From a virus (Duplodnaviria > Heunggongvirae > Uroviricota > Caudoviricetes), in the IMG/VR virus record IMGVR_UViG_2609459769_000006: a stretch of 15,351 bases of DNA; one strand, given 5' to 3'. The notes beneath the pieces were generated by a model, which was not told where the DNA came from, did not search any database, and worked only from the letters and a program-made list of their open reading frames with translations. Below are positions 1,031-15,351 of this stretch, piece by piece. The translations under genes were made by a program, and so were the position numbers. The first letter of the stretch is position 1. Each line of letters starts with the position of its first letter.

Positions 1031-1630
1031 TCAGAAACGGTATCCGATACCAACAATAAATGCATCCGTTCGCCAGTCGCCACTACCGGAACCTTCATAA
1101 GCAAGGTCAATGGTCACGGATTCGGTCGGGTTAAACTGCACGCCAGCCCCCCACGCCAGAGACGTGTTGCTGTGGCGACCGTCATCACTTCCGGTCAGCA
1201 CATCGTGCGTTTTCCCCTTGTTGTCAGTTACGCGGAGATAATCCCCGGAGAAAGTCGACACACGGCTGTAAGCCACACCCGCCATCGCATACGCGCTGAA
1301 CCATTCATTCACGCGTACAGACGGCCCCGCCATCACGCTGAACCAGCGGTTACGCACGGAATCTTCATGCCAGCGGGTATCGCTGTAGCGCGTTTTTTGC
1401 TCATCCTCAGCATTGGCATAACTGAAGGACGTAATCAGCCCCAGCGCGTCCGTAAACTCATAACGGTATTTCACGTTAATCCCGTTCAGATCATCACTAC
1501 CGGGAACGTTCGTCGAGGCATGGAGATACCCCGCGCTCAGCGTGGACTGATGTTCTGCTGCACTCGCTGGCGTAGCAGCGGCGACCTGCCAGACTACTGC
1601 GGACAAAATAACAGCACATAATTTACGCAT
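1031..1630 (-). CDS. lom: Lom outer-membrane protein (Ail/Lom family beta-barrel)
   Basis: 199-aa ORF MRKLCAVILSAV...HQSTLSAGYLHASTNVPGSDDLNGINVKYRYEFTD...AYEGSGSGDWRTDAFIVGIGYRF: signal peptide plus near-identity to my recollection of lambda Lom, ending in aromatic residue typical of OM beta-barrels; GAGAGG SD upstream of ATG 1630. Confidence 0.9.
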   Translation of the reverse strand: MRKLCAVILSAVVWQVAAATPASAAEHQSTLSAGYLHASTNVPGSDDLNGINVKYRYEFTDALGLITSFSYANAEDEQKTRYSDTRWHEDSVRNRWFSVMAGPSVRVNEWFSAYAMAGVAYSRVSTFSGDYLRVTDNKGKTHDVLTGSDDGRHSNTSLAWGAGVQFNPTESVTIDLAYEGSGSGDWRTDAFIVGIGYRF

Positions 1631-1654
1631 AATTACCTCTCGCTTTTCTGCAAT

Positions 1655-1678
1655 AAAAAAGGCGCCATTTCTGGCGCC
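1655..1678 (-). terminator. Putative intrinsic terminator between J fragment and lom
   Basis: Plus strand A-run 1655-1660 then GGCGCCA-tttc-TGGCGCC perfect 7-bp inverted repeat (1661-1678); on minus strand a hairpin followed by T-run, located after the J stop (1698) and just before the lom RBS. Confidence 0.5.
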
Positions 1679-1697
1679 CGTATCTGGGTTATAAAAT

Positions 1698-3068
1698 TCA
1701 GCTAATCGTGATGCCTGCAGTGGCTTTCTTCATCACCACAACCAGCAAATCGCTGATACTTGCTGTGGGATACCAGTTATTTACCAGCCATGCTGACACC
1801 GAAAACTCCAGTGTCATGTGACCGTGACCGGCAGGCATATCAATAACACCACTGTAAATCAGCGTATTATCCAGCGCGGTACGGTTATAAATTTCAGCAC
1901 CGTTTTTCCGCACTATCAGACGGCATGAGGAGTAAATATCAGTATGCTCTTTCTCATGTTTAGCGCCGCTGAATGCCACCGCCGGAATAACAATCTGCCG
2001 GTCAAACGGCTGATCGTCATAAACCCTGACGGTAATGGTTCCTGATGGCCACCGCTCCGGTGCACGGGAGTCCCGGGGGAAAGCTTTGCCCACTGTTTTA
2101 ACGAGATCGCCTTCAATCTGGTTCGCGGACAATTTTCCCAGAACCCGACAGTTCTCGTTAATCGTGACGTTGTTGAGCGTCCCGGAGTTCGCATTCACGT
2201 TACCGCTGATATCGGCATTTTTCGCCGTCAGCCGCCCGTCCGGTGTCAGGGAAAATGCCGGAGGATTACCGCCGCTGGTAATGGTGGGAGCCGTCAGATA
2301 TTTCAGGAACACTTCATTCATAAATATCTGATCGCCCTGACCAACAAACATCGGCTTTGTGTTGCCATTCGCAGGATTAATCATCGCAATCCTGTCTGCC
2401 GCCAGCAGCACCTGACTCTGCATTCCTGCTGGCGTATTCTCAATACCGGCACCGATACCCGCAATATAAAGGCGTCCGTCCTGCATCTGCTGCAGTTTCA
2501 CGGCCCACATGCTGTTCAGGTTATTATTTGTATCAACCTGAACTTTCTGTATCTGCTGGATTGCCGCACTCTGATTTTCCAGTTTTTTATTGACGGTCTG
2601 CGTGATTTCATTGCTGACATTCGTAATGGACGTCCTGATTTCAGCCAGGTCCGGCGCAAGCTGACCGTTATCAATCTGCGTCCACAGCTCCTGGGCCAGA
2701 TGTGTTTTCCCGATTTCTCCTTTGAAAAAATCCAGGTAACCTTCCGCATCATCGCTCGCCCGACCGACAGCCTCCACGAATGCCGATTTGCCAACAGTAT
2801 TCACACTGCGGATATAAAAATAATAATCATGGCCCGGTTTGATATTGATACTGGCAGCTATCCAGTACAGCGCCGAGCCAAGATAGCGGGCTGCGGTTTC
2901 AACCTGCCTGATATCCGCAATCCGCTTTTCCGAGAACCAGAACTCAAACTGTATCCGTGGTGGGGTTGTCGAACTCATCCGCCACCGCAGGACCGTTATC
3001 TGACTAACCTGTATTTCAAAATCAGAGAGGACCGTCGTAAGGCTGCACGGGGAGAGTAATTCAATGAC
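1698..3068 (-). pseudogene. J: Host-specificity/central tail fiber protein J, C-terminal fragment (5'-truncated remnant, about 456 codons of open frame)
   Basis: Translation contains [24 protein letters not shown]...[50 protein letters not shown]...[45 protein letters not shown], recognised as the C-terminal region of lambda J. Frame is open upstream only to a stop at 3069-3071, so roughly 670 N-terminal codons of a full-length J are absent; first ATG is at 2978. Confidence 0.75.
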
Positions 3069-4315: not shown

Positions 4316-5309
4316 CCGTGGCACTGCCGGCGGTGAACACCAGCTCCAGCGTCTGCCAGTCGTTACTGTAATTCCCGAACTCGCCCAACTTTGTGTTTCC
4401 TGCTTTCCTGTGATGCATCAGATTCAGTTTGCCGTCTGTGGTCTGGGTGAAGAACGACATCAGGAACGGGTTACCAGTCCCGGTCATCGTCACGACGTCA
4501 GGTAACGCTACATCGGTATACAGATAAATTCCCAGACCGAACTGGTTGTTGGTCAGTGCGCCTGACAGTCGAAACTTACAGCTCAGTCTGCCACCCCGTG
4601 TCAGCAGGGAGACTGCGTCATCCACCGGATGCATCAGGGACCAGGTTTTATTGCTCTGCTTGGTAACCTTAAACACACCATCTTCCAGCGCAACACTGCC
4701 GCCGGTGATGGTCCAGCCCTGCGCAGCAGCCTCTCCGGCTGTCGGCAGCAGGGAGACTGTACGAACGGATGTGTCACCATCAGACGGCCCCGATGGCGTG
4801 TCGCCGCCGGGCGAGGGTTTAATCTCCGGTGCGGTACCGCTGATGAAGGCGCTGGTTCGACCAACTGCGTTCAGAATAGCGGTTGCCAGGCGATCCGAAA
4901 TAATGCCCCTGCGCGCCCATGAACTGAAATGTGTCGGACGATTTGACGATACCCAATTACCATTACTACGGGATTGCGCGCCGTAATAACCTGCATCAGC
5001 AATATCCGGGTCTTCTGCCGGTAAGTTGGTGGGCGTGTTGTTGCCGTTACCGTCGGTCATGAACGGCACAAAGAAAACGTTGTCGCTCTCCCTGTTTTTG
5101 TACGCGCCGTAGACGGAGTCATACTGTGTGCCGTATGTGTTTTTCCAGTAATACGTCGTGTCGCCACAAATCCACGGTACAACTGCAGCACTGCCGCCAT
5201 GGCACTGCGCCGCCAGCCCGGCAAGGTCAGCACGGAACTGCTGTACCATTGCAAGAAATGCTGCTGGCTGCTGGGCGTACCAGAACAGATCGAAGTAATA
5301 CCCGCACAT
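4224..5309 (-). CDS. Hypothetical two-domain protein (361 aa): Cys/aromatic-rich N-domain, Pro/Ser/Gly linker, C-terminal Gly/Thr-rich probable beta-rich domain
   Basis: Longest and most protein-like ORF in this GC-rich stretch; start ATG overlaps the stop of the upstream 92-aa ORF in a TAATG arrangement (5305-5309), suggesting translational coupling; linker PEIKPSPGGDTPSGPSDGDTS. No family recognised. Confidence 0.6.
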   Translation of the reverse strand: MCGYYFDLFWYAQQPAAFLAMVQQFRADLAGLAAQCHGGSAAVVPWICGDTTYYWKNTYGTQYDSVYGAYKNRESDNVFFVPFMTDGNGNNTPTNLPAEDPDIADAGYYGAQSRSNGNWVSSNRPTHFSSWARRGIISDRLATAILNAVGRTSAFISGTAPEIKPSPGGDTPSGPSDGDTSVRTVSLLPTAGEAAAQGWTITGGSVALEDGVFKVTKQSNKTWSLMHPVDDAVSLLTRGGRLSCKFRLSGALTNNQFGLGIYLYTDVALPDVVTMTGTGNPFLMSFFTQTTDGKLNLMHHRKAGNTKLGEFGNYSNDWQTLELVFTAGSATVTPKLNGVAGPAAGQPVATAYPVRASPVLP

Positions 5310-5587
5310 TACCTCCAGATCCGTTGCTGGAATGTGCGGGACGGACGCGCTGGCCGTTCTGAGTAAGGGAGCCTGACGGAGATTATCCAGTGACGGTAGT
5401 CGAGGCTAAGGGCTTTTTTAACCTCGCATCCGCGCCCGCGGTAACACTGAATGAGCCATTCAGCCTGTTCTTCGGTGCAGGGGTCGTGCTGATACCAGTC
5501 AGATTTGAATGCATGAGAACGCCGCCCGTGCCTGCTGGCAGGGGCGGCAGAGTTATCCGAATTGTAAAATTTGGTATCGTGCGCCAT
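5309..5587 (-). CDS. Hypothetical protein (92 aa), first gene of a coupled pair
   Basis: ATG at 5587; stop overlaps start of the 361-aa ORF (TAATG). Contains Cys-containing segment DPCTEEQAEWLIQCYRGRGC. Weak SD. Confidence 0.5.
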   Translation of the reverse strand: MAHDTKFYNSDNSAAPASRHGRRSHAFKSDWYQHDPCTEEQAEWLIQCYRGRGCEVKKALSLDYRHWIISVRLPYSERPARPSRTFQQRIWR

Positions 5588-5995: not shown

Positions 5996-8260
5996 TTATA
6001 CGGAAACTGGCACACGAGCAGGCAATGGATAGTGAGCCCAGTTATTAGCATTTAAAGCTCTTACGCCATCAGCATAAACTTGTGTGTTTCCATCTAATGA
6101 TTTTAAAGTTACTACAATAGTTACAGGTAAAGGCTCCATTAAGGCCGGTTCATTCGCTCTCAACGTTGTTTTAGCTTGAAGAGCCCAGTTACCCGAAGTA
6201 ATTCCTTTATTAAATGCCTTGCGATGAATTTTTACTGGTGACCACTTTCCACCATGCTCAATTTGAGCTCTCTCATATCCAGATTGACCGTTTTCTCCTT
6301 CCATAGGTACTTTTCCTTTTATAGTATTATTCTCAATTAAGCCAAAACTTAGCTCTACGTTCGCGCGAACATATTCACTGCCGGCATTAGGGTTCAGTGG
6401 TGGTGCATATGCAGCAGTAATTACAATCTCACCTTTAAATTTTCCATTTTGAATAAGTGCCGATGGTATGGGATAGTTTTCCTTTCTCCACCTCACCCCA
6501 GGAACCAAGAATGTTTGGAAAATCAGAGTAAACCTATCATCACTATCATATAAGGTCTCAATAACCTCATTAGGAATTCCCGCTCCCAAATAGCGTCTTT
6601 CACTTGGCGAGTAATCAGGAGAAGATAATTGAGCGGAATGAATTAATAATGCTTTAATCAATGATGGTGAAACATTAAAGTCTGAATTAGTGGCTATTCT
6701 CTGCCATGTATGCGCAGCTAAACTTGCCACAATTGGAGCAGCAAAACTAGTACCAAAATTAGAGCAAAGCCTATTATCTGGCCCTACGACCTTTAAACTG
6801 CTTGCTCCTACATTCCAAGGTCTATGAACCCCACCGCCAGCATGGATTATATCTGGCTTTGGAGTAAATACAGGCCCAGGGCCACGACGAGTATATGGTG
6901 TCGGTGTTCCAATTTCACTTAAAGCATCATTAGCTTCCATATGAGAAACTGAACCAACTGTTAGTGCTCGGACTGACTCTCCAGGAGAGGAAATTAAATC
7001 AGCACCTCCAAGCGGATCAGGATTTGGCCATGTACGTATAGGTTCATCTACATAATTACCTGCAGCAACTACAAACAAAATACCAAATTTATCGCTGAGC
7101 CGATCTAACTCCATCGCAAAATCACTAAACATCTGCTCATTACATGGTCCGCCTCCCAAAGATAAATTCCAGACTTTTATATCTGGTCTTTTATTTACAG
7201 CATCTGCTAGCCTCAGAATTAAATCTGATATATAAGATCCATTTTCATCTAAAGCACAAACATCATGGATTTTAGATTTTGTATCAGGAATCCATGGATG
7301 ATTGTCATTTAAAAAATGAGCGCCTGATATCAATGAAGACACCATAGTCCCATGTTCATAACTCGTATCAGGAGGAATTACGTATGTTTCCCTACTCACT
7401 ACCCAAGGAGTAATTGTTGCCGCGATGGGGCTTACCCCAGTGTCAAATACAGCAACAATGGGTAATTCTTCTGATGGTACGGGAAAGCTATTTGTTTCAA
7501 TGCCAACAGAATCACTTACACTAACCGGGAATGCTGAATATTTTGGTTCTGGAATTAACGTTCTTATACCCGGGTAATCAATGAGAATGTCTAATATATA
7601 TCTATCATTTGGGGATAAATCCATTATCCTTAATAAGGGAAGACCACATTTTGGTCTAATCTCATCATATTTAACTCCGTGTTGTTCTAATATAGAAATA
7701 ACGTTTTCATAGTTGTTGTAAGTTGCATCTTCACCTGTGTACTCAAATAGTCGTACAAGGATGTTTGATGATTCAAACAAACCATCAGTGCCTCCTGGAA
7801 CCTTCCTATTCTCATCCCAAGGTTCAATGCGCTCAATCGCGCTTAGATTAGCCAAAATCGCTTTAATATTCCGATGTAAAATGACTGACTCTAATACGTC
7901 AAAACAGCCGGCATGAGCAGCAACCAACATTTCATCTATTTTGGCATGACCGGCATTTTGCAATCCAGCCTCTTGAGCAATTTTGTTCGGCCTATGCGTT
8001 TTGGCTATTCCCTGGTCTCTTAATTTGAAAACCAAAGTACCCAAGCTTCCAGGGTACTCTGAAAGTTTGGATTCTAAATAATGTTTACTGGTTGTTAAAT
8101 TTCTTACTAGCCCTTGTCTATATTCGGCTGTTACATCAACCAATACCTTTGCCCCACCGCCAGCGTTTACTATTGCACCCAAGTCACTACTGGAAAAAGG
8201 GATTCTTAACATTGGGTTTGTAACTTTTGCGTTACTAAACTGTGTACCCCTTCTGCTCAT
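5996..8260 (-). CDS. Large subtilisin-like serine protease (peptidase S8 fold) with uncharacterised N- and C-terminal extensions, 754 aa
   Basis: Canonical subtilase order and motifs: Asp in VAVFDTGV (D273), His in YEHGTMVSS (H303), oxyanion Asn in VVAAGN (N401), Ser in GTSFAAP (S505). About 255 residues before and about 195 after the catalytic domain with no recognised motifs. ATG 8260 preceded by AGGAG; start overlaps ATPase stop by 26 nt. AT-rich codon usage. Confidence 0.85.
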   Translation of the reverse strand: MSRRGTQFSNAKVTNPMLRIPFSSSDLGAIVNAGGGAKVLVDVTAEYRQGLVRNLTTSKHYLESKLSEYPGSLGTLVFKLRDQGIAKTHRPNKIAQEAGLQNAGHAKIDEMLVAAHAGCFDVLESVILHRNIKAILANLSAIERIEPWDENRKVPGGTDGLFESSNILVRLFEYTGEDATYNNYENVISILEQHGVKYDEIRPKCGLPLLRIMDLSPNDRYILDILIDYPGIRTLIPEPKYSAFPVSVSDSVGIETNSFPVPSEELPIVAVFDTGVSPIAATITPWVVSRETYVIPPDTSYEHGTMVSSLISGAHFLNDNHPWIPDTKSKIHDVCALDENGSYISDLILRLADAVNKRPDIKVWNLSLGGGPCNEQMFSDFAMELDRLSDKFGILFVVAAGNYVDEPIRTWPNPDPLGGADLISSPGESVRALTVGSVSHMEANDALSEIGTPTPYTRRGPGPVFTPKPDIIHAGGGVHRPWNVGASSLKVVGPDNRLCSNFGTSFAAPIVASLAAHTWQRIATNSDFNVSPSLIKALLIHSAQLSSPDYSPSERRYLGAGIPNEVIETLYDSDDRFTLIFQTFLVPGVRWRKENYPIPSALIQNGKFKGEIVITAAYAPPLNPNAGSEYVRANVELSFGLIENNTIKGKVPMEGENGQSGYERAQIEHGGKWSPVKIHRKAFNKGITSGNWALQAKTTLRANEPALMEPLPVTIVVTLKSLDGNTQVYADGVRALNANNWAHYPLPARVPVSV

Positions 8261-9389
8261 ATGCTCCTGACTCCTTCAGAATGTTTGAAATTACTCTTGA
8301 TGTAAGTTTGTACAAATTAGCAAGAACTCTGATAGAAAATAATTTTTTATCTTTAGAACGTAACCAACGAATTTCATCTTCGTAAGTGCTTAAATTTACA
8401 CCTTCCATAAGCGATTGCGCAAGATACAAACGCCTATACAATTTATGGTGATTTATCACACTTGCACCTTCAATAACTGCATCCCTACGTGCATCCAAGC
8501 TCACCTGTTCAATTATTGCTCCGGATAATCCCTCCGATTTTCTTGATAAATCACTTAAATCTAGATCGCTACATATCATATTCTTTAAACGATTTTTCCA
8601 AATTAACTCTCTCTGATGTATGTCAGGCAGAGGCATTGGAATTCTGAAGCTAAATCGCCTCCAGATTGCAGGATCCAGAAGTTGCTCATGGTTAGTTGAG
8701 GCAATAATTACCGTATCCTCTGATGCCGCATCCATATTCTGCAATAGTGAAATGACAACTCGCTGAAGCTCACCTATATCTCTCTCATTACCTCTTGCTC
8801 CAGCTAAAGCATCAAATTCGTCTAAAAAAAGCACTGATGGCCTCTGCATTACATAATCGAAAACCTGTCTAAGATTTTTGCTGGTTTGTCCCAATAAACT
8901 ACTAATCAAAGTATCGCAACGCACTGTAAGAAGTGGAAAATCTAAGCGGGTAGCGATGTACTTAGATAACATAGTCTTACCTGTTCCTGGCTTTCCATAC
9001 ACGAGCATACGACTCGGCAATGCTGCATCAGCTTTAACAAACTCATCATAACGTTGAACATTAGTGATAAACTCTTCAACACGGGTACTGATTGCTGCAG
9101 GCAGAAAAATCTCTGAACTGTCTAATTTAGGATAACTGACATCAACAGTGTTGAGTCGACTATCAATATCTACCGGTAATGAGCCCAGAGATATCCCACC
9201 TCCAGCCCTTTGAGCTCCTGCCAACGCCTGGGGAGCTCTAAGCAACCTTTCTCTTATCATTCTGGCTTGCTTGACCTCCCCTTTTTGTTCGAGCTTATCT
9301 GCCAGCAACCCAGCATAATTACTAGCCATCGAAGCATTTGCCTTTGTTGCACCTTCAATGATTTTTAACACTTCTGATAAATAATCCAT
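8235..9389 (-). CDS. AAA+ ATPase (classic AAA clade), 384 aa
   Basis: Walker A GKPGTGKT (res 132-139), Walker B VLFLDEFD (186-193), sensor-1 STN (231-233), second region of homology with arginine pair PAIWRRFSF (240-248). GGGAG SD 7 nt upstream of ATG 9389. 3' end overlaps protease start (operon). Confidence 0.85.
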   Translation of the reverse strand: MDYLSEVLKIIEGATKANASMASNYAGLLADKLEQKGEVKQARMIRERLLRAPQALAGAQRAGGGISLGSLPVDIDSRLNTVDVSYPKLDSSEIFLPAAISTRVEEFITNVQRYDEFVKADAALPSRMLVYGKPGTGKTMLSKYIATRLDFPLLTVRCDTLISSLLGQTSKNLRQVFDYVMQRPSVLFLDEFDALAGARGNERDIGELQRVVISLLQNMDAASEDTVIIASTNHEQLLDPAIWRRFSFRIPMPLPDIHQRELIWKNRLKNMICSDLDLSDLSRKSEGLSGAIIEQVSLDARRDAVIEGASVINHHKLYRRLYLAQSLMEGVNLSTYEDEIRWLRSKDKKLFSIRVLANLYKLTSRVISNILKESGAYEQKGYTV

Positions 9390-12551: not shown

Positions 12552-12977
12552 TTAGTGCATCACCACAGCATTCCCTGCCGGGCCGCCGCGATTCATCTGG
12601 TCATACAAAACAACCGCTGACGCAACAAAATCATCGACATCCTTCACCAGCCGATCCCTCCGTTCGACGATCTCACGGTAATATTCAGAACTGTGGCTGC
12701 GCATACGGGCCACCAGCAAAGGCGGCATCGCCTTTTCGATCGCCGGTAACAGAGCCTGCATTTTTTCAACAGCATCAGGGGTGTCTTTATCCAGCCAACG
12801 GAAAATTTTCTGGGTATTACGGGCCAGGGCTTCCGGATGGCTGTCGTCATACAGTTCCGGGAACGTCATTCCCAGCTCGAAATACGCTTTGGTAATTTTC
12901 GCAGCCGGCACTTTTTCGCCGTCCGGATGCGCCCAGACATTCATCGCCATGCGGATGTGTTCATGCTTGATTTTCAT
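12552..12977 (-). CDS. ydaT: YdaT-like protein (reported functional analogue of CII in Rac/CP-933P-type immunity regions), 141 aa
   Basis: Position directly after the Cro-like gene and before the replication genes; size about 140 aa; sequence MKIKHEHIRMAMNVWAHPDGEKVPAAK... matches my recollection of YdaT. AGGAG SD 8 nt upstream of ATG 12977. Not verified by alignment. Confidence 0.6.
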   Translation of the reverse strand: MKIKHEHIRMAMNVWAHPDGEKVPAAKITKAYFELGMTFPELYDDSHPEALARNTQKIFRWLDKDTPDAVEKMQALLPAIEKAMPPLLVARMRSHSSEYYREIVERRDRLVKDVDDFVASAVVLYDQMNRGGPAGNAVVMH

Positions 12978-13242
12978 GAATCAAGCTCCTAGAAAGTGGT
13001 TGTGTTAACGTTTTGGTATCTTCCAGCTCGGGCCAAATATTCATCCAATCAAAAGGCCTTAGTTGCTGACGTGTAACTTCACCATTACTGGCTCGCTCAA
13101 TAAGGACACATAACGATGCCCCTAACACTTGACCTTTACTCAATGCCTTTCTTAGATAACCGATGCTGGTACCACACTCGCATGCAAACATACGCTGTTC
13201 ATCTGACGAAAGAGAATTGAGAAATATTCTTAATTCTTCCAT
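12961..13242 (-). CDS. ydaS: Cro-like HTH regulator (YdaS-like), 93 aa
   Basis: First gene of the rightward-type operon, divergent from repressor; AAGGAG SD 6 nt upstream of ATG 13242; HTH-like segment CGTSIGYLRKALSKGQ. Symbol by synteny. Confidence 0.6.
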   Translation of the reverse strand: MEELRIFLNSLSSDEQRMFACECGTSIGYLRKALSKGQVLGASLCVLIERASNGEVTRQQLRPFDWMNIWPELEDTKTLTQPLSRSLIHENQA

Positions 13243-13342
13243 AGCTACTCCTTAGTAAACACAGCAAAGAATACCCACAGGTAAACAAAAGTCAATACCC
13301 ACAGGTTGTTTACCTTGCGGTAATCGCATCTATTATTTACCT
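13243..13342. promoter_or_regulatory. Divergent promoter/operator region (OR-like) between Cro-like gene and repressor
   Basis: Three copies of a 12-mer, consensus TACC(C/T)A(C/T)(A/G)GG(T/A)(A/T): 13272-13283 TACCCACAGGTA, 13296-13307 TACCCACAGGTT, 13339-13350 TACCTATGGACA (overlaps repressor start codon). Minus-strand promoter candidate TTGACT (plus coords 13290-13295), 16-nt spacer, TATTCT (13268-13273). Plus-strand TATTAT at 13331-13336 only 6 nt before the repressor ATG. Confidence 0.55.
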
Positions 13343-13762
13343 ATGGACAAATATGAATTTAGACGACAGCAACTCATCAAAATTCGTGATGAGAAATGCG
13401 ATGGTAAAGCGGTTAACGTGGCCAGAAAGATCGGGCGCGAGCCTTCTTATGTATCAAGAATGTTGTACCCAGAGGGGAAAAAGGGAAAAAAACGGATCGC
13501 TGATGATATGGTGGAGATTATCGAAGAGTCCTTTGGGTTACCCCGGGGATGGATGGATGGTATCGTTTCATCATCAACGAACACAGCCTCCAGTTATGAA
13601 ACAAGGGTTCTAACGCCACGACAACGTATTTTTTTAGATCTCTTAGACGAACTGCCAGAAAGTGAAGCGGATAAATTATTAAAAACTCTTGAAGAGAAAA
13701 AACAGTATTACAATATGATCTACGAAGAAATCCGTAAAAAGAAAGCACAAAACGCATCATAG
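13343..13762 (+). CDS. Prophage repressor (CI functional analogue, RacR-like), HTH N-terminus, no LexA-type peptidase domain
   Basis: 139-aa ORF divergent from Cro-like gene; HTH-like GKAVNVARKIGREPSYVSRMLY; C-terminus charged/coiled-coil-like without the Ser/Lys dyad region of S24 autopeptidases; flanked on both sides by operator-like 12-mers. No in-frame upstream start exists. Confidence 0.7.
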   Translation: MDKYEFRRQQLIKIRDEKCDGKAVNVARKIGREPSYVSRMLYPEGKKGKKRIADDMVEIIEESFGLPRGWMDGIVSSSTNTASSYETRVLTPRQRIFLDLLDELPESEADKLLKTLEEKKQYYNMIYEEIRKKKAQNAS

Positions 13763-13804
13763 CTCACCAAACAACTAGTCACCAGTTAAGACACCGCAAA
13801 AATT

Positions 13805-13841
13805 TACCCATGGGTATTTACTTTTTAAATACCTATGGGTA
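13805..13841. promoter_or_regulatory. OL-like operator pair / candidate leftward-type promoter downstream of repressor gene
   Basis: Perfect palindrome TACCCATGGGTA (13805-13816) and TACCTATGGGTA (13830-13841), 25 bp centre to centre, same consensus as the OR sites; plus-strand TTTACT (13817-13822), 17-nt spacer, TATCCT (13840-13845) as a possible promoter overlapped by the second site. Confidence 0.45.
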
Positions 13842-13946
13842 TCCTTCTTTTCATACCAACCCACCCCGCCCCACAGAATGCAGGGCAATACTTCGAGTTA
13901 CCAGGCAGTGGTCAGGGGTTAAGTAGCCAGCCCGAGGCGTAAGAAC

Positions 13947-14180
13947 ATGACGGCAGGGTTCAACTTTAATAACTATGCAGCAGGTTTTTGTTCCGCTACC
14001 CCGGCGTTAAGGGGAAATGAGGTCAACATGGATATGCTCAATCTTGGCAACAACGAATCTCTGGTATGTGGCGTGTTCCCCAACCAGGACGGCACGTTTA
14101 CCGCGATGACGTATACCAGAAGCAAAACGTTTAAAACTGAAGCTGGCGCGCGTCGCTGGTTAACCAGAAACACTGACTGA
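13947..14180 (+). CDS. Small hypothetical protein (77 aa; alternative start ATG 14028 gives 51 aa)
   Basis: ORF downstream of the OL-like sites; internal ATG at 14028 has a GAGG SD 5 nt upstream. Stop TGA overlaps the next ATG (TGATG at 14178-14182). Occupies the ydaF/ydaG-like position of Rac-type prophages; no sequence recognition. Confidence 0.4.
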   Translation: MTAGFNFNNYAAGFCSATPALRGNEVNMDMLNLGNNESLVCGVFPNQDGTFTAMTYTRSKTFKTEAGARRWLTRNTD

Positions 14181-14831: not shown

Positions 14832-15351
14832 TTCACCCTCCTGAGGGTTGGTAATTAAGGAGTTCTCCACGGGTCAGGTGGAGTGCGTGCGCCGGACACG
14901 GGTGAACATCCGGCACTGACAGTTTACTGAAAGGATATGTCCCTGAAAAGTCAGGGCATAACGCGAAAGCGCACGGCGAAATTGGTCTCTCTGTACGGTG
15001 TCGTTAAATTTAGTTCGACCGTGCGCTTCCGGTTGTGGCAATCCGCGAAATGGTGCGGCGGTAAGTATGGCGGGGTTATTCCTTCCCCCGTTGAGGACAC
15101 CGGGTTGTCAGGTTGACCATACGCTTAAGTGACAACCCCGCTGCAACGCCCTCTGTTATCAATTTTCTGGTGACGTTTGGCGGTATCAGTTTTACTCCGT
15201 GACTGCTCTGCCGCCCTTTTTAAAGTGAATTTTGTGATGTGGTGAATGCGGCTGAGCGCACGCGGAACAGTTAAAACCAAAAACAGTGTTATGGGTGGAT
15301 TCTCTGTATCCGGCGTTAATTGTTAACTGGTTAACGTCACCTGGAGGCACC

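Follow-up and report, generated by a model that had tools for sequence, protein, structure and literature searches.

The window, as we call the whole 15,351-bp stretch analysed here, contains a divergent pair of repressor and cro-like genes with a 100-bp spacer between them. The repressor gene encodes a protein that matches PHROG 5736 at 6.4e-70 and is labelled 'hypothetical protein' in RefSeq. The product of the opposite gene matches PHROG 35 ('transcriptional repressor', 4.8e-23) and the PDB entries 8c7k/8co2 ('Cro', 1e-10). The original prediction had named the two genes as a repressor and a Cro-like gene, and the PHROG and PDB matches agree with it. The element is present in 822 of 5426 complete E. 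coli genomes (~15%), including ST131-type strains. The features of the locus are listed below.

12961–13242, minus strand: Cro-like gene (HTH of the YdaS type), 93 aa, at the head of the PR operon
12985–13856: putative immunity cassette comprising cro, OR, repressor and OL/PL, with a mosaic junction at each end
13268–13295, minus strand: predicted PR; −35 TTGACT (13295–13290), 16-bp spacer, −10 TATTCT (13273–13268); promoter scan 9/12
13272–13283: candidate OR1, TACCCACAGGTA; exact match, in the PR spacer, its last TA beginning the PR −10
13296–13307: candidate OR2, TACCCACAGGTT; one mismatch (GGTT), degenerate right half
13309–13336, plus strand: predicted PRM; −35 TTTACC, 16-bp spacer, −10 TATTAT; promoter scan 9/12
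13311–13322: candidate OR3, TACCTTGCGGTA; exact match, overlaps the PRM −35
13338–13349: doubtful site, TACCTATGGACA, over the repressor ATG; GACA for GGTA (two mismatches)
13343–13762, plus strand: repressor gene, 139 aa
13805–13816: candidate OL2, TACCCATGGGTA; exact match, perfect palindrome, directly upstream of the PL −35
13817–13845, plus strand: predicted PL (dicBp-like); −35 TTTACT (13817–13822), 17-bp spacer, −10 TATCCT (13840–13845)
13830–13841: candidate OL1, TACCTATGGGTA; exact match, in the PL spacer, its last TA beginning the PL −10

The window is near-identical to phage Tritos up to 12984 and again from 13857, and between these points the two are unrelated except for the repressor tail. 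All five sites named OR or OL above lie within this mosaic cassette. An exact copy of the YdaT site TTGATT-N6-AATCAA (PMC9986795) is found at 12967–12984, and DicF is present downstream in the window. A 21-nt inverted repeat (I2; 13061–13081 and 13354–13374) has both arms in coding sequence.

Candidate operator sites and predicted promoters around the repressor gene

The motif TACC-N4-GGTA has four exact matches in the 15,351 bp, against 0.14 expected, and none of 200 shuffled sequences gave four. It had been proposed to look for the 12-mer elsewhere in the element; the exact copies of the window proved to be confined to 13272–13841, within 570 bp around the repressor gene. With up to two mismatches allowed, the window holds 63 matches against 45 expected, and one such further match lies at 13246, within the spacer between the cro-like and repressor genes. 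Across 212 kb of related loci the exact motif occurs 108 times, against ~3 expected. A literature search with the motif strings and the mEp043 operators returned nothing relevant, and the motif is not mentioned in the papers searched.

We compared ~30 loci that encode the same DNA-binding domain, among them phage mEp043 and loci from Yersinia, Edwardsiella, Klebsiella, Pantoea, Aeromonas and betaproteobacteria. In the 23 typical loci, where this domain is 49–93% identical, the TACC and GGTA half-sites recur at the same offsets from the repressor start in many genera, which agrees with the operator reading proposed at the outset. Both half-sites are essentially invariant in OR1, OR3, OL2 and OL1, and the central 4 bp drift. 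OR1 keeps TACC/GGTA without exception in these 23 loci at −71 to −75 from the repressor ATG, and OR3 is kept at −32 to −35. The left half of OR2 hardly varies: A, C and C are kept in all 23 loci and the first T in 22 of them. The right half is always degenerate, GG[T/C][T/C]-like. The spacings are fixed at 24–25 bp for OR1–OR2, 15 bp for OR2–OR3 and 24–26 bp for OL2–OL1. On the protein side, the recognition-helix residues P34, S35, Y36, S38, R39 and M40 are invariant or nearly so. These data support the view that the 12-mers are operators of a lambdoid immunity region.

The original prediction had listed five operators, at 13272, 13296, 13339, 13805 and 13830. All five 12-mers are present, four of them starting exactly there; the fifth contains the repressor ATG, as was claimed, and starts at 13338. 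Conservation retains the same four, drops the fifth as probably a chance match and adds the site at 13311, which had been missed. The 24–25 bp spacing ascribed to adjacent sites holds for 13272–13296 (24) and 13805–13830 (25), but the true third site lies 15 bp from the second.

The three right-hand sites (13272, 13296 and 13311) overlap two back-to-back promoters. PR has a predicted start at ~13261, followed by the Shine–Dalgarno motif AGGAG (13252–13248). Across the 23 typical loci the last T of its −10 never varies and keeps a fixed register with OR1, and a TCAA block (TTGA on the other strand) is conserved immediately next to OR2. OR2 lies between the −35 elements of PR and PRM, adjoining each of them, with its centre at −41.5 relative to the predicted start of PRM, and the PRM −35 falls inside OR3.

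A TATTAT hexamer had been pointed out 6 nt before the repressor ATG. It is there, at 13331–13336, and belongs to PRM, which the promoter scan called independently. The predicted PRM start falls on the first base of the ATG (13343) or next to it, so that the repressor mRNA would be leaderless. The layout fits such a transcript also in the related loci, where 26 of 30 have the −10 6–7 nt before the ATG, no Shine–Dalgarno motif and the same −35/−10 register.

The second set of sites (13805 and 13830) brackets TTTACT and overlaps TATCCT of a predicted early leftward promoter, PL. Its hexamers are weak, scored by eye at 8/12 and under the threshold of the promoter scan. The predicted start is at ~13852, from where PL would drive ydfA-like genes, DicF and onward. 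The PL/OL block is an inverted duplicate of the PR/OR1–OR2 block (repeats I1 and I3), and PR and PL are built alike, with the −35 between O2 and O1 and the −10 beginning on the last TA of O1. In 21 loci two sites 24–26 bp apart are kept 3′ of the repressor gene, with OL2 followed by TTGAC, and all 21 agree in the T that ends the −10 (TAnnnT) after OL1. The two sites after the repressor stop, which had been noted with no role at this promoter, are conserved; they would form the operator of PL, equivalent to dicBp, and not act on the repressor gene itself.

Other readings of the OL pair and of the start-codon site

The stretch 13805–13841 could mainly, or in addition, be an intrinsic terminator of the repressor transcript, in which the two near-identical palindromes would pair into a 16-bp RNA hairpin ahead of a T-rich run. 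A terminator scan calls the OL pair, with a 5-nt loop closed by 16 pairs and TCCTTCTTTT as the tail, and the RNA fold reaches −23.4 kcal/mol (z = −4.7). No other hairpin lies between the repressor stop (13762) and PL, and read-through into the toxic dicF/dicB operon would be undesirable. The hairpin itself is genuine, but one can be expected from any palindrome present twice, and only 5 of the 16 pairs are G-C. The T-run is missing in the 92%-identical relatives (L032 and L033) and, more broadly, lost among relatives of 85–92% identity, so that the G+C-rich conserved stem and U-run of an intrinsic terminator are not what is found at 13805–13851. In the Salmonella relative a separate hairpin lies upstream of the OL pair and no T-run follows the pair, and in mEp043 the pair lies ~400 bp past the cI stop, beyond another gene and a clear terminator. 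Across the relatives the pair is conserved as two 12-mers in −35/−10 register, not as a stem. We therefore rejected the terminator and consider this role of the OL pair unlikely.

Still less probable is the reading that the repressor also binds 13338–13349 as a fourth right-hand operator, blocking PRM at +1. The 12-mer has nine bases in a row (TACCTATGG) in common with OL1, and TTTACCTATGG is similar to both OL sites (repeat D1). An identical 12-mer is found in the 92% relatives and a related form, TACTTATGGATA, is retained in the 85%-identical Salmonella locus. Among such close relatives this conservation carries no information, as the entire spacer is 85–90% identical in that clade. Beyond the close E. 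coli/Salmonella clade the site has 3–6 mismatches in every locus, including mEp043 and Serratia, which places it outside the conserved set. Its mismatches, at G10 and T11, fall on positions that vary little or not at all among more than 100 aligned sites, and the codons Met-Asp-Lys dictate the sequence of its right half. Nor is it significant by itself, because matches with up to two mismatches are common, arising by chance about once per 300 bp. The 13338 site, neither conserved nor above chance, was rejected as a true operator and is probably a chance match or a coding-constrained half-site.

The repressor and the proposed switch

The repressor consists of an HTH DNA-binding domain (residues ~1–72), a disordered linker and a DicA-like helical tail (~89–138). 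A Pfam search with the 139 residues gave no match, neither to the S24 peptidase (PF00717) nor to HTH_3. Over residues 1–86 the protein is 65% identical to mEp043 cI, which places this part in the mEp043-cI type (PHROG 5736), and all 21 invariant columns of the repressor alignment fall within residues 1–72. The tail matches positions 81–131 of the DicA model NF007257 (E = 1.9e-5), a score that misses the family cutoff since the match is confined to the tail, and aligns with K-12 DicA by BLASTP at 2e-7 (33% over 46 aa). BLASTP gave no N-terminal alignment to DicA, and an HTH_3 domain of the DicA/P22 C2 kind is not found. Relatives with the same N-terminal domain carry PF00717, and the domain swap is visible in the alignment. 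By sequence comparison, the repressor is an mEp043-cI-type DNA-binding domain joined to a DicA-like helical tail. It resembles DicA/Gifsy-type repressors in being short, in having no domain with a cleavage site and in its DicA-like C-terminal tail.

An AF2 model (pLDDT 85) shows an XRE-type HTH. The repressor sequence had no significant match in the PDB, and the fold search by itself gave weak phage-repressor and XRE matches, the best PDB match by Foldseek being the phage repressor in 5d50 (E = 2e-3, TM-score 0.44–0.47). None of 50,697 phage records carries the repressor, the best being mEp043 with 65% over the N-terminal domain.

The sites are very unlikely to be recognised mainly by the Cro/YdaS-like protein, with the 139-aa protein binding elsewhere or not being the immunity repressor. 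A Cro homolog lies divergently upstream of the repressor and accompanies the sites in 22 loci, so that co-conservation by itself cannot separate the two proteins and sequence cannot tell repressor binding from Cro binding in most loci, and the 139-aa protein has no Pfam HTH match and its 'hypothetical' label; but five Klebsiella loci keep the repressor homolog with the OR1, OR3 and OL sites and have no Cro homolog, and the N-terminal domain is 65% identical to an annotated cI, is fused to S24 in most relatives and is modelled as an XRE-type HTH, with a phage repressor as the best match of the model in the PDB. The operators of known lambdoid switches serve the repressor and Cro alike.

We consider it highly probable (roughly 85%) that the locus is an ordinary lambda-style immunity switch of an E. 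coli lambdoid prophage, whose repressor would bind the TACC-N4-GGTA sites. A dimeric helix-turn-helix repressor would recognise each 12-bp site. With OR1 and the weaker OR2 occupied, PR would be blocked and the cro-like/ydaT/replication operon kept off, and repressor at OR2, centred at −41.5, would be placed to activate PRM. At high concentration the repressor would also fill OR3, which contains the PRM −35, and PRM would be turned off. OL2 and OL1, which lie 43 bp past the repressor stop, bracket the PL −35 and overlap its −10; their occupancy would silence the ydfA-dicF(-dicB) operon. Presumably the operators also serve the Cro-like protein, which would fill them in reverse order.

DicF and DicB are toxic cell-division inhibitors. 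The switch would govern the operon that holds DicF, and DicB in relatives, so derepression would matter for the host. RecA-driven self-cleavage of the repressor is unlikely, as the protein has no S24 peptidase domain. With a DicA-like tail in place of that domain, derepression through an antirepressor or by stochastic switching would be the more likely route. LexA boxes in the window are not above chance (5 one-mismatch matches against 5.0 expected), and SOS control was rejected on this count and on the lack of the S24 domain. A search within the window identified no antirepressor gene. ORF 5309–5587, which precedes ydfU and so has the position of rem in Qin, was tried as a Rem-type antirepressor and rejected, as it has no similarity to K-12 Rem.

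Although the repressors compared are only 50–65% identical, hardly any change is seen in the TACC/GGTA half-sites or the recognition helix, so prophages whose repressors end in either an S24 peptidase domain or a DicA-like tail might share one DNA-recognition specificity. It is possible, if speculative, that an uncleavable repressor would then confer SOS-proof cross-immunity against inducible relatives such as mEp043. If so, a DicA-tail repressor could also hold mEp043-like prophages repressed in trans, and cross-immunity would arise by swapping the tail rather than the DNA-binding domain. The well-supported operator consensus tTACC-YRYR-GGTAa and the promoter map make the switch directly testable and permit this immunity-region family to be annotated in Enterobacterales, Aeromonas and some betaproteobacteria.

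Comparison with known immunity systems

The arrangement is built like that of lambda. Both have divergent repressor and cro genes, three operators over two back-to-back promoters with the middle operator near −42 of PRM and the third overlapping PRM, a leaderless repressor mRNA (here predicted) and, downstream of the repressor gene, a further set of operators at the early leftward promoter. The sites here are 12 bp long (TACC-N4-GGTA) and those of lambda 17 bp. OR2 and OR3 are 15 bp apart, whereas the spacing in lambda is 23 bp, so the cooperativity rules of lambda may not transfer. There are two OL sites instead of three, only ~520 bp from OR, and, unlike in lambda, the repressor lacks the S24 self-cleavage domain, Cro is YdaS-type and CII is YdaT-type.

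CP-933P of O157:H7 likewise combines a YdaS-type Cro and a YdaT-type CII with a short non-S24 repressor, PaaR2. The PaaR2 transcript is leaderless by 5′ RACE, and the PR/PRM/PL logic has been shown experimentally (PMC8630535). PaaR2 is unrelated in sequence to the present repressor, the operator repeats are of the GTTTAGTAA type and a toxin-antitoxin pair lies behind the repressor gene. Rep of Salmonella phage SPC32H, seen in 5d50 as a Rep-Ant complex, is the best but a weak structural match, at an identity of 16–22%. Like the Gifsy repressors it is short and inactivated by an antirepressor, not by self-cleavage.

The Qin prophage of K-12 (DicA/DicC/dicBp) shares with our locus a short repressor that has no cleavage site and a homologous C-terminal tail. 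In both, two operators come after the repressor stop and flank a promoter −35, which in Qin is that of ydfA-ydfB-ydfC-dicF-dicB. The N-terminal domain and the operators (TTAGC/GCTAA-type in Qin) are unrelated, and no homolog of Rem was found in the window. The DicA/dicBp system is relieved by the antirepressor Rem, and DicA also switches spontaneously (PMC10448788).

In phage mEp043 (JQ182734/PV340537) the DNA-binding domain of the repressor shares 65% identity over 86 residues and the Cro 73%, and the five-site layout is the same, with TACC-N4-GGTA at −72, −47 and −32 and a PL pair 25 bp apart. In contrast, its cI has 228 aa with an S24 peptidase C-terminal domain, and its OL pair stands before the N antiterminator gene, ~400 bp beyond cI. 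The repressor described here belongs to a familiar kind of protein, of which it is a new and uncharacterised example, and its mechanism is not new. It adds a further case of modular repressor evolution, in which one DNA-binding domain is joined to either a self-cleaving or a DicA-type tail.

Genes of the immunity region and the modular repressor

The region 12961-13850 contains divergent repressor and Cro-like genes separated by 100 bp. The genes and called promoters of the switch, together with the DicF gene downstream of PL (the dicBp-like promoter after the repressor gene), are as follows:

12961-13242, minus strand: Cro/YdaS-type HTH gene (93-aa ORF)
13295-13268, minus strand: PR, promoter of the cro-like operon (scan; TTGACT, 16-bp spacer, TATTCT)
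13309-13336, plus strand: PRM, promoter of the repressor gene (scan; TTTACC, 16-bp spacer, TATTAT)
13343-13762, plus strand: repressor gene (139-aa ORF)
15165-15216, plus strand: DicF antisense sRNA gene (Rfam RF00039, 76.7 bits)

The 93-aa ORF encodes a predicted Cro/YdaS-type HTH protein, with matches to PHROG 35 (5e-23) and, at 1e-10, to the Cro structures 8c7k and 8co2 of the PDB. Genes for a YdaT/CII-like protein, an O-like replication protein and a DnaC-like protein follow it. On the repressor strand, a DUF1391/ydfA-like gene and then the DicF RNA lie downstream, and in relatives ydfB, ydfC and dicB come next in the operon. Since DicF is located downstream of PL, the switch would, like that of Qin, control an operon that inhibits cell division. 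Many E. coli genomes have prophages with a 100% identical copy of 12900-14000, and 822 of 5426 complete E. coli genomes carry at least 80% of this stretch.

The immunity cassette also occurs in a fuller prophage at ompW of strain MS6198. In the window, a Lom gene and a 426-aa ORF with only the C-terminal domains of the tail-tip protein J (1031-2978, minus strand) lie within ~3 kb of early-region genes, so that the prophage of this genome is probably defective through deletion or rearrangement. The early region also carries the AAA ATPase IetA (8235-9389, PADLOC E 9e-143) and the subtilase IetS (5996-8260, E 3e-300), both on the minus strand, a predicted two-gene anti-phage defence system at 5996-9389.

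The repressor is labelled 'hypothetical protein' in RefSeq; a Pfam search of its 139 residues gave zero matches, and its PHROG hit is family 5736, 'transcriptional regulator' (6e-70). Homology search and alignment showed a domain spanning residues 1-72, whose 21 invariant columns take in the predicted recognition helix P34-S35-Y36-x-S38-R39-M40. Most relatives carry an S24 peptidase domain behind it and are thus LexA-family proteins of 221-242 aa, such as the cI of phage mEp043 (65% identity across 86 residues). In the window, a helical tail of roughly 50 aa replaces the peptidase domain. The tail matches the DicA C-terminus (NF007257 positions 81-131, 1.9e-5; BLASTP to K-12 DicA, 33% across 46 aa, 2e-7), and the phage Tritos repressor is the converse, with another N-terminal domain and nearly the same tail. 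The AlphaFold model (mean pLDDT 85) shows a four-helix HTH at 3-63, a disordered linker at 77-87 and a helical hairpin at 92-138; its top PDB fold match, to Rep of the Rep-Ant complex from a Salmonella phage (5d50), is weak (E 2e-3), and the other best matches are XRE/C-protein HTH domains. The repressor is thus modular, with an mEp043-type DNA-binding domain and a DicA-like tail. Some database proteins, P0010 and P0019 in the repressor alignment among them, start at an out-of-frame ATG (13353) and re-enter the repressor frame around the GGGGAAAAAGGGAAAAAAA run (A/G run 13474-13495; stretch 13353-13613, plus strand), which indicates that frameshifted repressor alleles circulate in E. coli.

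Predicted operators and promoters

The original prediction placed five operator-like 12-mers around the repressor gene, one of them over its start codon. All five exist in the sequence and four of the coordinates are right, TACCTATGGACA beginning at 13338 rather than 13339. The exact motif TACC-N4-GGTA occurs four times in the 15,351-bp window versus 0.14 expected, all between 13272 and 13841, and 0 of 200 shuffles gave four. One exact copy, TACCTTGCGGTA at 13311-13322, was absent from the predicted list. The 13296 site has one mismatch (GGTT) and the 13338 site two (GACA). With two or fewer mismatches, the window holds 63 matches versus 45 expected (~1 per 300 bp), close to background.

We fetched 27 genome loci, each encoding a relative of the repressor DNA-binding domain, from Yersinia, Arsenophonus, Edwardsiella, Klebsiella, Brenneria, Pantoea, Leclercia, Atlantibacter, Aeromonas, Ferrovum, a Hydrogenophilaceae MAG and others, and added mEp043 and four closer loci. 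Conservation was scored on the 23 loci that share the typical layout. Here OR1 (13272 in the window), 71-75 bp ahead of the repressor ATG, keeps an essentially invariant TACC and GGTA, and both half-sites are equally conserved in OR3 (13311), 32-35 bp ahead, and past the repressor gene in OL2 and OL1 (13805 and 13830), a pair separated by 24-26 bp. Between the half-sites the four bases vary, with Y-R-Y-R preferred. In OR2 (13296), 47-50 bp ahead of the ATG, TACC is near-invariant (first T in 22/23 loci) and the right half is degenerate in every typical locus (GGTT, GGCC or GACC). Spacings are fixed at 24-25 bp for OR1-OR2 and 15 bp for OR2-OR3. Altogether, 212 kb of related loci contain 108 exact sites versus about 3 expected, and mEp043 carries the same five. 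The 12-mer over the ATG has 3-6 mismatches in all loci outside the closest E. coli/Salmonella clade, where its retention says little because the whole spacer is 85-90% identical, and the codons Met-Asp-Lys fix the sequence of its right half. We conclude that the conserved set of predicted operators is 13272, 13296, 13311, 13805 and 13830; four predicted sites thus stay, 13311 is added, and 13338 is dropped as most likely a chance half-site. The original observation was largely right and its interpretation mostly right. A literature search, of incomplete coverage, found no publication on this motif.

A consensus promoter scan of 13150-14000 called exactly two promoters, PRM and PR. The PR -35 occupies the OR2-OR1 gap and the -10 starts at the last TA of OR1, its final T being invariant in 23/23 loci. 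PL has the order OL2, TTTACT, 7 nt, OL1, with TATCCT starting from the last TA of OL1 (final T invariant in 21/21 loci); OL2 is followed by TTGAC in most relatives. At just 8/12, the hexamers of PL in the window went uncalled in the scan. A repeat finder showed PR/OR1-OR2 and PL/OL1-OL2 to be inverted duplicates.

In RNA, the two near-identical OL palindromes would also pair into a 16-bp hairpin (-23.4 kcal/mol, z = -4.7) with TCCTTCTTTT behind it, a structure that a scan calls terminator-like and that could help end the PRM transcript ahead of the toxic operon. We consider such a secondary terminator role in this allele unlikely. Against termination as the main role stand the loss of the T-run in relatives of 92% identity, a Salmonella relative with a separate hairpin ahead of its pair, and mEp043, whose pair sits past another gene and a clear terminator; what is conserved is therefore not a stem but a pair of predicted operators in register with a promoter.

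The PRM -35 sits within OR3. The suggested leaderless repressor transcript gains support from a predicted -10 lying 6-7 nt ahead of the ATG with no Shine-Dalgarno in 26/30 loci, and lambda cI is a direct precedent. PaaR2 of CP-933P is another, mapped by 5' RACE (PMC8630535). The OR2 centre is 41.5 bp ahead of the predicted PRM start, the same position from which lambda cI activates PRM (PMC8630535).

Boundaries of the cassette

Phage Tritos, of a different immunity type, is near-identical to the window up to 12984 and again from 13857, and unrelated in between except for the repressor tail. These breaks define an exchangeable cassette, 12985-13856, which holds cro, the five operators, the repressor and PL and ends ~11 bp past the PL -10, as would be expected of a self-contained immunity module.

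TTGATTTTCATGAATCAA (12967-12984) exactly reproduces TTGATT-N6-AATCAA, the footprinted operator of YdaT (CII-like) in CP-933P (PMC9986795). It sits where the cro-like gene ends, spans the start codon of ydaT (12977) and stops exactly on the left mosaic junction. The PL operon leader, 13857-14000 (ACCCACCCCGCCCCACAGAATGCAGGGCAATACTTCGAG...), begins a few bases past the predicted PL start, and many phages whose immunity regions differ share it at 93-99% identity. The cro-like gene (13061-13081) and the repressor gene start (13354-13374) each contain one arm of a 21-nt inverted repeat with 86% complementarity, which may be chance.

Protein recognition, induction and known systems

In 22 loci the sites occur together with a Cro homolog (42-91% identical), so co-conservation by itself does not tell the repressor from Cro. 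Five Klebsiella loci encode a repressor homolog beside a host gene and lack a Cro homolog, yet keep sites at the OR1, OR3 and OL positions; hence the sites go with the repressor domain. Cro most likely uses these sites too, as it does in other switches of the lambdoid type. In these loci (L007, L009, L011-L013; Klebsiella spp.) the S24-type homologs adjoin a pyruvate:flavodoxin-oxidoreductase-like gene, OR2 is missing, and the downstream pair is kept in four of five, being absent in L012. These homologs may be domesticated or orphan repressors.

RecA-stimulated self-cleavage of the window repressor is unlikely because the Pfam search found no S24 domain in it, and the window has no LexA box above chance. 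The Gifsy and SPC32H repressors are controlled by antirepressors. DicA, which shares the tail, is likewise relieved by the antirepressor Rem and also shows spontaneous, RecA-independent switching (PMC10448788). No Rem homolog was found in the window, where the ORF in the position that rem occupies in Qin, upstream of ydfU (5309-5587), is unrelated in sequence.

The operator and promoter map will aid annotation and can readily be tested. The switch is a new, well-defined system of a known lambdoid kind and would not surprise a specialist. It follows the same logic as lambda, has the DNA-binding domain and operators of the mEp043 immunity type, and shares with Qin DicA/dicBp the tail, the downstream operon and two operators after the repressor stop. 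Its Cro and CII belong to the YdaS/YdaT type of CP-933P.
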